IMG/VR virus record: IMGVR_UViG_3300032236_000862
Span: 36,329 to 100,328 of that record
Reading direction: 5' to 3' (one strand)
Origin: a virus
DNA length: 64,000 nt
Part shown: one piece after another, positions 11,401 through 13,685 of the stretch
How the letters are laid out: every line of letters starts with the position of its first letter
How positions within the stretch are numbered: the first letter of the stretch is position 1
Notes under the pieces: generated by a model
What the model saw: only the letters and a program-made list of their open reading frames with translations
What the model was told of the DNA's origin: nothing
Databases searched by the model: none
Translations under genes and position numbers: made by a program

Positions 11401-11533
11401 ACACAAGACTTGGCAGTTTAATAAGTTCTGGATATCTGTTGGTATGAGCAAGCAGTTTGCTATCAGTATCTATATCAACGAGTTATTCGCAGGCATTGAT
11501 ATTGGATGCTTCTACTTCTCCATCGAATACTAA
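11390..11533 (+). CDS. Hypothetical micro-protein (47 aa)
   Basis: GGAGG RBS; MKARHKTWQFNKFWISVG...FYFSIEY. Confidence 0.6.
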   Translation: MKARHKTWQFNKFWISVGMSKQFAISIYINELFAGIDIGCFYFSIEY

Positions 11534-11545
11534 TCTTATGTGAGG

Positions 11546-11589
11546 AGGCGGGGTTGAGCGTGTGAGGGTACGCTCCCCCGCCTGTTTTT
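11546..11589 (+). terminator. Intrinsic terminator
   Basis: AGGCGGGG..GAGCGT/ACGCTC CCCCGCCT stem followed by GTTTTT. Confidence 0.75.
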
Positions 11590-11923
11590 CTGTGTGATGC
11601 GATGCCTCCACAGCACACCCGATGAAAATCTCTGTGCTGTGCTGGCTTCGGATTACATAGGTAATCCAGGGTCATACACATCCGCACAAAAGAAAGAGCG
11701 TGGTAGGCGTTGAGCTAAGGCTCCGAACGAAATAGTTCCGGCTATCTCTAATAGGGCTGAACCCATCGGGCCGATCCCCTTGTCCTCGTAAGACTTCGTG
11801 GGCTTACACGGCATTGTGCTGCTATCGAGTACTGCGGAATAGTATGCAAATGAACTCACAACGCACGGAGAGTATAAACCGTGTATGCACCAACACAAAC
11901 AACTACACAAAGGAGGGCCAGTA

Positions 11924-12337
11924 ATGGCTAGAATCACCAACCTCATCAACAAGGCTGATGCTCTCAAGCAGTTAAACGCTGCACTGAAGAAGGCTAACGC
12001 TGAGTACGATAAGGACTCCAAAGCATATGTGGCCGCTAAAGCCATCTATGACAAAGAGATAGTTGCATACAACAAAGCCGTTGTTGCAGCCGGTATCGCA
12101 TACCTAAAGTCTGTTGATACCAACAAAGCAAATCAATTCAGTGCTAGGTACGGAAGTACCATAACACACGTTGACTTCAACATCAACATTGGATTGAAAG
12201 AACCAAGCCTAGACAAGGCACAGCCGTATAGAAATATGATTGAGCGTATTGAGAAGCAGATTCGTTCTGTTTCAATTATGTCCGGCGAAACCTTCAATGC
12301 CAGCATGTTGCATGACGATTTCTTCAACTGCTTGTAA
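11924..12337 (+). CDS. Hypothetical coiled-coil protein
   Basis: AAGGAGG RBS before ATG 11924 (MARITNL...). Confidence 0.8.
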   Translation: MARITNLINKADALKQLNAALKKANAEYDKDSKAYVAAKAIYDKEIVAYNKAVVAAGIAYLKSVDTNKANQFSARYGSTITHVDFNINIGLKEPSLDKAQPYRNMIERIEKQIRSVSIMSGETFNASMLHDDFFNCL

Positions 12338-12389
12338 TACGGGTAACGCCGGTTGGTTTCTAAAGTTCTTCCTGAGGTAAAAGAACTCC

Positions 12390-12420
12390 TGTCCTAAGCA
12401 TGACAAGGCTAAACTGCTTA
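12390..12420 (+). ncRNA. Small H-type pseudoknot, copy 1
   Basis: TGTC-CTAAGCAT-GACA-AGGCTAAAC-TGCTTA. Confidence 0.6.
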
Positions 12421-12421
12421 C

Positions 12422-12494
12422 GCCCTCATAGTTCAATGGATAGAACATCATCGTCCTAAGGTGAGTGTTGCCAGTTCGATTCTGGCTGAGGGCA
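12422..12494 (+). tRNA. tRNA-Arg(CCU), CCA not encoded
   Basis: Full cloverleaf: GCCCTCA/TGAGGGC acceptor, GTTC/GAAC D-stem, TCATC-GTCCTAA-GGTGA anticodon arm, GCCAG-TTCGATT-CTGGC T-arm. Confidence 0.92.
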
Positions 12495-12541
12495 CGGCAC
12501 GGAGTGCGGGATGACTTGTAGTCAGAAAACCTCCCTCGCCA

Positions 12542-12569
12542 AGAGCTGAGCATCTCTATAAACTGCTCA
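12542..12569 (+). ncRNA. Small H-type pseudoknot, copy 2
   Basis: AGAG-CTGAGCAT-CTCT-ATAAAC-TGCTCA. Confidence 0.6.
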
Positions 12570-12591
12570 TTACTAATAGAAAGGAGGAACT

Positions 12592-13685
12592 ATGGAACCG
12601 GAAGACTTGCACGGTAAGTTTGAGTATTCAGCCACACCAGAGCACAAGACCAACATCTTGCCACTCAGGTGGTTTGCCAATGCTTGCAATCATCTATCAA
12701 GTTTTGCGATAGAGCGAGCATTAGATCATGAAGACTTTGCCCATTACAACGGCACTGAACTATCACGAGCAGGATATAGATGGTGGAAGATTTGGGCCAT
12801 CATCAACATTCCCTACGATAAGTGGGGCACAACCTATCTAGTAGATTGGCATAAATAATGCAACCAACACAAACAACCCTCTCACAGATAAAAGCCGAAG
12901 CCGCAAGCCGAGGCAACGTCGTATTCATTGATGATTCCCTACTTGAATCGGCCAAACGATTAGAATTCATTGTAGATGCAGTTGCCCACAAGGGACTCAC
13001 CTACAAGGAAGCGTCAGCCTTATGGGCTGATGGCATTGACACTCTGCACACAAGTGTAGAGACAATAACAACCTCCGAAAGGGGCCTATAAAATGGCAAA
13101 AGGTAAAGGCGGAGCACCAGCTCCTAAAGCAAACACAGCAGGCGAACGCCAGAATGGCAAAGCCCGCAAGAAAAACCCAGGACCAGCACAGCCAGAGAAG
13201 ACCAACTTCACACACGTGAATGGTCGTTCGGCTGCTAGTCACGCCAAGCGTGAGGCTTGGAAGGCTGCCGGTGGTCGTGCAAACCACGAGTCAATCCCTC
13301 ACTGGAAGACCGGCAAGGTGTACAAGGCACCGGTCTATTCAGTATTTGCTAAGGCACTAGTGTGAGCAAGAAGATAAAGCGCAAGCACGTTGTTGCCACA
13401 CTTGAGCAACAGATACTCGAGGAGCACGATGACCTGCATTGGGATGACCATCAGCATAGTCGTGCATATCACAGCGGGCTTATGGATGGCTTGGGGTTTG
13501 CCCTCAAGTTACTCAAGCCTGATTCAACTGTGCTTCCCCTCACATCCGTGTGGTTCGATGAGGAACCAACACAAACATCCGAGCGCCAGCGTGAACAACT
13601 CATCGAAATTCAGTATGTTGACATGGCCGATCCTATTCCTGTAGCCTGTTATGCAGGGTTGTTTGAAACAGTGGAGGCACCATGA
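12592..13685 (+). CDS. Four small hypothetical genes (12592-12858, 12858-13091, 13093-13365 basic and disordered, 13362-13685)
   Basis: Abutting or overlapping ORFs with RBSs. Confidence 0.75.

Follow-up and report, generated by a model that had tools for sequence, protein, structure and literature searches.

Among the RNA elements described so far, coremin, an exonuclease-resistant RNA (xrRNA) also termed xrRNA-C, appears from sequence and pairing pattern to be the closest known relative of the pseudoknot reported here, two copies of which flank the tRNA-Arg gene in a 64,000-nt stretch of phage DNA (hereafter the window; bases 36329-100328 of the 100,328-bp IMG/VR record IMGVR_UViG_3300032236_000862). 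Coremin comprises a hairpin of 3-5 bp, in which C-G is required as the closing pair, a loop of the form YGAD or YGNNAD that begins with C or U (longer loops start with CG), the spacer UUAAACUAC, of which AAACUA and A16-A20 are essential, and, directly after the spacer, an obligatory second hairpin of at least 4 bp; genetic data indicate an H-type pseudoknot between the loop and the spacer (PMC6546385, PMC10321173, PMC10520033). In vitro it not only stalls Xrn1 but also blocks ribosomes that are scanning and promotes frameshifting (PMC6546385, PMC10321173, PMC10520033). Beny-, cucumo- and many further RNA viruses carry coremin or its Watson-Crick variant xrRNA-WCC (Dilweg et al.; PMC6546385, PMC10520033, PMC10321173).

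The authors of the coremin studies compared it with luteoviral pseudoknots (PMC6546385, PMC10321173, PMC10520033). The phage elements likewise resemble the -1 frameshifting pseudoknots of beet western yellows virus and potato leafroll virus in their similar size, in a loop 1 of one or two bases with a conserved C and in an A-rich loop along stem 1, but they never lie in an open frame, are not associated with a slippery site, and have a stem 2 of 6 bp instead of 3 bp. A functional analogy is offered by intercistronic stabilisers, such as the RNase III site hairpins of phage T7, repetitive extragenic palindromic (REP) and intercistronic hairpins and the 5' hairpin of ompA, which lie between cistrons and define or protect processed ends. 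These are simple hairpins or long duplexes that often need a specific RNase, whereas the phage element is a conserved pseudoknot with invariant single-stranded bases, found across phyla.

Two pseudoknots flank the tRNA-Arg gene

Both pseudoknots lie in a 254-nt gap between two + strand open reading frames (ORFs; 11885-12337 and 12592-12858), on the same strand as both. Copy 1 (12390-12420) reads TGTC (12390-93), C, TAAGCA (12395-12400), T, GACA (12402-05), AGGCTAAAC (12406-14) and TGCTTA (12415-20), and ends 1 nt before the tRNA gene (12422-12495), with C12421 in between. It thus consists of stem 1 (TGTC/GACA), a loop 1 of a single C, stem 2 (TAAGCA/TGCTTA), a loop 2 of a single U and a long, 9-nt loop 3, AGGCUAAAC, common to its orthologues. 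Copy 2 (12542-12569) has the canonical 28-nt form, with AGAG (12542-45), C, TGAGCA (12547-52), T, CTCT (12554-57), ATAAAC (12558-63) and TGCTCA (12564-69), that is, stem 1 AGAG/CUCU, loop 1 C, stem 2 UGAGCA/UGCUCA, loop 2 U and loop 3 AUAAAC; it begins 46 nt past the tRNA and ends 13 nt before a Shine-Dalgarno (SD) sequence and 22 nt before the ATG of the downstream ORF. The spacing of the stem-2 arms differs between the two copies (11 vs 14 nt), and stem 1 is closed by C-G in copy 1 and by G-C in copy 2, the latter a minority variant in the family described below. A first-pass annotation of the window had proposed two such elements bracketing the tRNA gene, the one just before it and the other just ahead of a ribosome-binding site (RBS), with a stem 1 that pairs in both despite its different sequence, an A:T/G:C swap in stem 2 and an invariant AAAC linker; each of these features is present as proposed.

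The skeleton shared by the two copies, AGCAT-N4-20-AAACTGCT, occurs twice in the window against an expectation of 0.06, a count reached in none of 100 shuffles. Script scans of the whole 100,328-bp genome yielded no third copy. A covariance model of the family, of whose training set both copies were members, scored copy 1 at 28.4 bits and copy 2 at 40.6 bits; run on the window with filters off, it gave 8.8 bits (E 3.6) for the next best hit. Nearest-neighbour folding showed no stability signal for either knot and is uninformative here because its energy model handles no pseudoknots; z-scores of minimum free energy (MFE) folds around the tRNA trailer and the gap were not significant.

Stem-wise covariation defines a phage RNA family

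The family consensus, NNNC-C-URRRYA-U-GNNN-NUAAAC-URYYYA, describes a fold of 28-31 bases in the order S1a(4)-C-S2a(6, URRRYA)-N-S1b(4)-(N)nUAAAC-S2b(6), S1 and S2 being stems 1 and 2, and both window copies fit it. An IMG/VR scan for AGCAT-N5-12-TAAACTGCTYA gave at least 118 loci, with 122 matches among those listed. The shortest allowed gap was found in 76 of these 122 listed matches, where chance would spread them evenly over the gap lengths, and nearly all shortest-gap matches read NNNC-C-UR-AGCA-U-GNNN-N-UAAAC-UGCUYA. The pair of elements had been taken for a local oddity of this genome, which it is not: it is the local instance of a widespread family.

Each stem was tested on sequences chosen without reference to that stem. 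For stem 1, 75 unique phage sequences were picked by sequence only (AGCAT-N5-TAAACTGCTYA); all four pairs form in 56 and three of four in 13, while with the 5' arm shifted only 0-5 sequences reached four pairs, and every pair type is present at the three variable positions. For stem 2, 42 elements were picked by stem 1 and the linker only; here all six pairs form in 29 and five of six in 11, shifted controls never exceeding four pairs, and clean double changes include UGGACA/UGUCCA, UAGACA/UGUCUA, UGGGUA/UACCCA and UGAGUA/UACUCA. An alignment of 96 sequences, which was partly selected on pairing so that the tests on 75 and 42 sequences are the unbiased ones, has 94.2% of its cells paired (23-37% for slid partners), 178 double-sided changes and a covariation score of 0.503 (at most 0.085 for slid partners). 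Outside the variable pairs conservation is strong: the closing pair is C-G in 68 and loop 1 is C in 71 of the 75 sequences, and AAAC is found in all 96. G-U pairs are tolerated in the stems, and the elements are oriented by strand along the genes. As the two covarying stems interleave, the fold is of the H type, and the comparative evidence shows that this conserved pseudoknot is a real RNA fold, as the first-pass annotation had claimed for the two window copies, and that it extends far beyond this genome.

Searches of Rfam 15 at E≤10 gave no match at the window elements (11500-13500), at five cultured-phage loci or in the leader of a prophage scaffold gene, and no match at gathering score at 18 bacterial loci; membership in preQ1-I, GP20-a/b or ribozyme families was rejected on these grounds. 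Literature searches with motif strings, for phage xrRNA or RNase J, and for phage pseudoknot motifs found no description of the element, although a catalogue of 10,006 phage motifs (PMC10690425) may contain it. Judged by these searches, the elements represent a widespread phage RNA family that is absent from Rfam, and a covarying and very widespread family missing from this database merits cataloguing whatever its function.

A resemblance to preQ1-I aptamers had been remarked in the first-pass annotation. The likeness of topology stands, since preQ1-I too is a small pseudoknot of the H type whose 3' linker is rich in A, but membership does not: neither RF00522 nor any other riboswitch model matched in the cmscan search of 11500-13500, the SD sequence lies 13 nt beyond stem 2 rather than within it, and the phage copies are numerous, precede unrelated genes and tRNAs and have no association with queuosine genes. 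The wider possibility that the knot is an aptamer or operator, with the loop 1 C, the loop 2 U and UAAAC forming a pocket, as in riboswitches of the preQ1-I type, or a recognition surface for a protein or small ligand, would account for the strong conservation of the single-stranded bases, yet the intramolecular triples of luteoviral and coremin-type knots suffice to explain it. Stem 2 is moreover a stable 6-bp helix that contains neither SD sequence nor terminator and so offers no expression platform, unrelated genes and tRNAs are preceded by as many as seven copies per 14 kb, and a family spread over many phyla, in phages unrelated to one another, speaks against a phage-specific protein. On these grounds we consider an aptamer or operator improbable.

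Distribution of the family

Members were found in phages of Actinobacteria, Firmicutes, Alpha- and Gammaproteobacteria, Cyanobacteria, Bacteroidota and Saccharibacteria. Roseophage SIO1 carries a good copy 9 nt after the stop codon of its ribonucleotide reductase gene; good copies are also present in Lentibacter phages such as ICBM2, in Celeribacter and Synechococcus phages, in mycobacteriophage Labelle, and in Arthrobacter, Clostridium, Lactobacillus and Streptococcus phages. Vibrio phage D456 has a well-formed copy and crAss-like phages have tandem copies. The phietaviruses of S. aureus, B236 and phiETA among them, carry a weaker copy with only four pairs in stem 2; in Staphylococcus phage B236 (NC_028915.1 21303-21341; L160:1192-1230, contigs being given by L numbers) a copy lies between the minor head protein and scaffold genes, and the B236 record annotates a BPROM-predicted promoter (P5R) exactly over it.

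A strict 20-base version of the motif was found in 35 bacterial genome records, where about one is expected by chance. Some of these records are clearly prophage head modules with the knot between minor head/MuF and scaffold genes, and Lactiplantibacillus and Planomicrobium prophages have it at the same head-module position as the S. aureus phages. About one third of the bacterial matches come from Saccharibacteria/Patescibacteria (L126, L129, L130, L132, L135, L143, L147, L150, L153-L155), including the complete genome CP128407.1; the flanking proteins at these loci mostly have no Pfam match, and the loci may be prophages or chromosomal.

Two loci stand apart, as the knot follows cellular genes, for a hybrid-cluster protein and an 8-oxoguanine glycosylase, in an Omnitrophota (L149:957-1020) and a Planctomycetia (L156:5400-5460) contig. 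Both knots are preceded by a common hairpin, GUAGCCC-N10-GGGCUGC, and to judge by this shared arrangement hairpin and knot seem to move between phyla as a unit. In Chaseviridae we noted a look-alike, CC-C-UGAGCA-U-GG...AAAC-UGCUCA, whose stem 1 has only two or three pairs (phiEcoM-GJ1, L158:1501-1525; Erwinia phage Berlingot, L162), and the membership of the phiEcoM-GJ1 and Erwinia phage copies is doubtful. The phiEcoM-GJ1 look-alike lies inside an annotated coding sequence for an 80-aa hypothetical protein, about 215 nt upstream of a tRNA-Arg gene; either it is a degenerate member or the coding sequence was wrongly called.

Position relative to genes and tRNAs

Positions were counted for 104 members defined by a strict descriptor. 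None lies inside an open frame, and as no open frame spans any member, neither frameshifting nor readthrough can be its role. In 56 of the 104 cases the knot begins 4-16 nt past the stop codon of an ORF with ≥50 codons, and the lower limit is sharp at 5 nt: 15 knots lie at this distance and a single one lies at 4 nt. This minimum may reflect the reach of the leading edge of a ribosome on the stop codon, the knot being placed as close as possible without being unwound. On the other side, the next start codon follows 17-36 nt downstream of the knot in 56/104. Immediately past the knot, G makes up only 5-10% of the first 8 nt, and over 32 nt the downstream sequence has less structure than control windows do (-1.99 vs -3.38 kcal/mol).

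Seven loci that fit the strict descriptor, the window genome and six others, have a knot that ends 1-6 nt before a tRNA, and two more were recognised by eye (L057, L128). Because several of the tRNA-Asp loci are homologous, this arrangement represents at least three independent lineages. No comparably tight knot spacing was seen on the 3' side of tRNAs (46-97 nt). A T-rich tract follows the knot in only 18 of 137 members and neither window copy, and a role as terminator was rejected. Across the 137 members TATAAT-like hexamers show no peak at a fixed distance 5' of the knot; in L034, L035 and L051 TATAAT is present about 8 nt upstream.

The sharp minimum after stop codons and the usual distance to the next start would also suit an element of the translation boundary, which insulates cistrons against post-termination sliding, scanning or coupling, or keeps the G-poor tract open as a platform or standby site for 30S loading. 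An unstructured and G-depleted downstream segment is what one expects of an initiation region, copy 2 ends shortly before an SD sequence, and coremin blocks scanning ribosomes and stimulates frameshifting. Such a role nevertheless leaves unexplained the copies 1-6 nt before tRNAs, after which no translation follows, as well as those with T-runs after them, and copy 1 of the window begins 52 nt past the nearest stop codon. We therefore regard it as rather unlikely.

The same positions, at gene boundaries and beside tRNAs, could suggest a processing signal or catalytic RNA that punctuates the polycistronic transcript, either a tiny self-cleaving RNA with a core like that of the pistol ribozyme or an element recognised by one of the host endonucleases, for example RNase P, III, E or Y. 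In pistol the hexaloop of a hairpin pairs with a strand further downstream, and the linker of env25 begins with UUAAA; hairpin, loop pseudoknot and A-rich linker are reminiscent of its P1-pseudoknot core. In the phage knot, however, only 28 nt are conserved and the flanks are neither conserved nor structured; the P2 and P3 helices and the cleavage-site strand of pistol are absent, and the ribozyme models of Rfam gave no match. RNase P would likewise find no acceptor-like 3' tail in the knot, and RNase III no long duplex, which makes a processing signal or ribozyme very improbable.

Insertion of the tRNA-Arg gene

Searching for the long and unusual copy-1 linker retrieved nine related phage contigs of 30-100 kb. 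All nine share the same 39-nt leader, hairpin and pseudoknot (stem 1 UGUC/GACA, linker AGGCUAAAC), and in all nine the knot is directly followed by TTACT.., an SD sequence and a homologue of the 88-aa ORF downstream of the tRNA in the window, with no tRNA. The window lineage has instead the order leader, knot 1, C, tRNA, 46 nt, knot 2, TTACT, SD, ATG, which is common to three near-identical contigs. The flank TTACT.. on the 3' side of copy 2 is homologous to that after the single pseudoknot of the tRNA-less relatives, and compared with L164, L174 and L176 the window has bases 12421-12563 in addition, that is, the tRNA-Arg gene, its trailer of 46 nt and a 5' portion of pseudoknot 2. Since the relatives keep knot 1 and the downstream gene without the tRNA, we interpret the tRNA and the second knot with its different stem 1 as an insertion in the window lineage. 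The exact copy-2 sequence was found only in the three near-identical relatives, and a search with it revealed no donor of the tRNA cassette.

The knot-1 orthologues of the related phages have the stem-2 arms TGAGCA/TGCTCA, TAAGCA/TGCTTA or TGAGTA/TGCTCA and thus differ by a paired G-C to A-U change, with a G-U form in L179. The stem-2 swap that the first-pass annotation had read from the two window copies is thereby found between orthologues as well, and such compensatory changes provide direct evidence of selection on stem 2.

Both junctions of the insertion fall inside the conserved knot cores, which suggests from the aligned sequences that the cores act as microhomology for cassette exchange. 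After the insertion a knot is present both at the 5' junction of the tRNA and in the leader of the downstream gene; this is consistent with a requirement for a knot immediately before the RBS, but could alternatively be a by-product of recombination between knots. The locus represents a natural experiment, with one knot and a gene in the relatives against knot, tRNA, knot and gene here.

Taken further, the junctions could mean that the elements are features of the DNA only, namely recombination joints, cassette boundaries or a promoter or operator that brought in the tRNA. The genes beside family members are indeed shuffled among related contigs, and one S. aureus phage record has its BPROM promoter over a copy, as noted above. 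Compensatory changes in two interleaved stems, tolerance of G-U and orientation by strand are, however, signatures of RNA pairing; the spacing of the stem-2 arms varies, unlike that of a dimeric operator, the gap contains no sigma70 match, and the cores may recombine simply because they are conserved. A purely DNA-level role is hardly credible in view of these points.

A putative roadblock at RNA processing boundaries

Neither a sigma70-like promoter nor a + strand terminator was predicted in the gap (12338-12591). The tRNA-Arg gene is therefore probably embedded in a polycistronic + strand RNA, and its excision should split the mRNA. By analogy with coremin we tentatively favour, while giving it slightly less than even weight, a function of the knot as a protein-independent roadblock or end-cap at RNA processing boundaries, which would protect the ends left after excision of the tRNA. 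We infer for this reading that both elements are transcribed within one + strand RNA and that each folds as a compact H-type pseudoknot, in which C-G (in copy 2, G-C) closes the 4-bp stem 1, the deep groove of the 6-bp stem 2 is crossed by a single C and the A-rich linker (N)UAAAC lies along stem 1. The conserved single-stranded bases would be engaged in major- and minor-groove contacts and make the knot mechanically tough, mainly against machines approaching from the 5' side. If RNase P cuts at 12421/12422, pseudoknot 1 and a single base after it would form the end of the upstream mRNA, a tail too short for 3' exonucleases and hence a poor substrate. Pseudoknot 2 would follow the new 5' end of the downstream fragment and halt 5'-to-3' attack before the RBS, be it by RNase J or by RNase E scanning from a 5' monophosphate.

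We rank the roadblock, which the first-pass annotation had likewise put forward as an exonuclease block, first because key features of coremin are shared, because the knot recurs 1-6 nt upstream of tRNAs and because a second copy is present ahead of the RBS where the tRNA was inserted. The location between genes, with no member in frame and with the observed spacing to stop and start codons, fits a boundary element, and the spread over many host phyla argues for a mechanism that is independent of a partner or relies on universal machinery. Flaviviral xrRNAs reportedly stop bacterial RNase J1 in vitro. A correlation with hosts that have RNase J was rejected as a general rule, given the well-formed copy in Vibrio phage D456.

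[quoted passage not shown] An H-type pseudoknot forms in the phage family, and is proposed for coremin, by pairing of the loop with the bases immediately following AAAC, and both can be intergenic and in tandem copies. Both window copies have UAAAC-U, with the next base G and not A, as in most members, while some members have UAC. The phage loop, on the other hand, is C-URRRYA-U (8 nt) with a full Watson-Crick stem 2 of 6 bp, where coremin has two or three partly non-canonical pairs, and the phage family is found in DNA phages and some bacterial genomes, where Xrn1 is absent. By these criteria the phage family is not coremin but plausibly works alike; shared descent is unlikely, and convergence on one structural solution is the cautious reading.

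Several observations speak against the proposed roadblock. The window loops CUAAGCAU and CUGAGCAU miss YGAD/YGNNAD, as their initial C agrees with it but U takes the place of G in second position, and the phage family has no second hairpin, its downstream 32 nt being G-poor and less structured than the controls. The closing pair of copy 1 is C-G as in coremin, that of copy 2 is G-C, and a G-C closing pair abolished the Xrn1 resistance of BNYVV coremin (PMC6546385, PMC10321173, PMC10520033). A knot placed only 1 nt from where RNase P cuts might impede rather than assist binding of the leader, the second pseudoknot could be a by-product of the way in which the tRNA cassette went in and answer no functional need, and there may be a promoter in the conserved 39-nt leader. 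The host of Vibrio phage D456 is not known to have RNase J, so a pure RNase J block cannot be general.

It is possible, although we would not count on it, that the family represents the first class of exonuclease- and helicase-resistant RNA from the bacterial world, a protein-free and direction-dependent knot that phages of almost every host phylum place between genes and ahead of tRNAs, that fixes RNA ends and lifetimes by a coremin-like structural solution and whose cores double as joints for swaps of cassettes like this tRNA-Arg between phages. If the roadblock reading is true, a module of 28 bases would explain message boundaries and stability within the long operons of phages and how tRNA genes can be embedded in mRNAs without loss of the flanking genes. 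The xrRNA concept would then extend from eukaryotic RNA viruses to bacteria and DNA phages, with a convergent knot architecture, and a very small, portable RNA-stabilising part would be available for bacterial engineering.

Further features of the locus and its relatives

The IMG/VR record has direct terminal repeats. Proteins encoded in the window include a family A DNA polymerase, a DnaB-like helicase, a class II ribonucleotide reductase and baseplate J. The helicase is closest to those of BRock-type Streptomyces phages (37% identity), so the host is possibly actinobacterial.

The + strand ORF upstream of the gap (11885-12337, 150 aa) has its stop codon at 12335-37, 52 nt before pseudoknot 1. 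Other genes stand in its place in the relatives, and no relatives of the ORF itself were found when it was used as a search anchor. It is followed on the + strand by the conserved leader (12351-12389), GGTTGGTTTCTA with a hairpin of 7 bp (12364-70/12381-87) and the loop CCUGAGGUAA. The 39-nt leader is identical or nearly so in L164, L170-L172, L174, L176, L179 and L180, whereas the gene preceding it is not constant. The leader may act as a promoter or as a second RNA module, or may belong to a larger fold. Its loop string CCUGAGGUAAAA(C) recurs in a different setting in L102 and L178.

The tRNA-Arg gene on the + strand (12422-12495, anticodon CCT; ARAGORN; Rfam RF00005, 59.7 bits) is the only tRNA gene of the window, and CCA is not encoded. 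For copy 1 only, the acceptor stem of this tRNA, which starts 1 nt after the knot, could act as a second hairpin of the coremin kind. The 46-nt trailer (12496-12541, + strand) was found only in the window lineage; it has a predicted small hairpin and contains CCUCC (12530-34), which could pair with the downstream SD sequence GGAGG (12583-87). The latter precedes the 88-aa ORF (+ strand, ATG at 12592, SD and ORF together 12583-12858), in whose leader pseudoknot 2 lies and which has no family match and none in PHROGs.

Pairing of CCUCC with 12583-12587 appears in MFE folds, with no significant z-score and no comparative support. A long-range pairing of AGUUCUUCCU (12364-73) with AGGAGGAACU (12582-91), likewise present in MFE folds with neither a significant z-score nor comparative support, comprises 10 bp, uses the 5' arm of the leader hairpin and would sequester the SD sequence of the ORF at 12592. 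The SD sequence is changed in L004, and this change is uncompensated.

Some further motifs were noted in the window and in other contigs. In L102 (1300-1364) and L178 a variant element, CCCG-UAAGCA-U-CGGG-GUAUAUC-UGCUU, lies directly 5' of a canonical knot and about 20 nt after a tRNA-Met; it has the same stem order with a linker other than UAAAC, and may be a second pseudoknot subtype in tandem. The oriented motif CAACACAAACA is located at 11891 and 12865 of the window, in both cases just past the ATG of the ORFs flanking the tRNA region and in different frames, and also just ahead of the tRNA-Met of L102 (about 1185). A similar motif, CAACACAAAGG, follows the pseudoknots in a contig of a Solirubrobacterales metagenome-assembled genome (L145).

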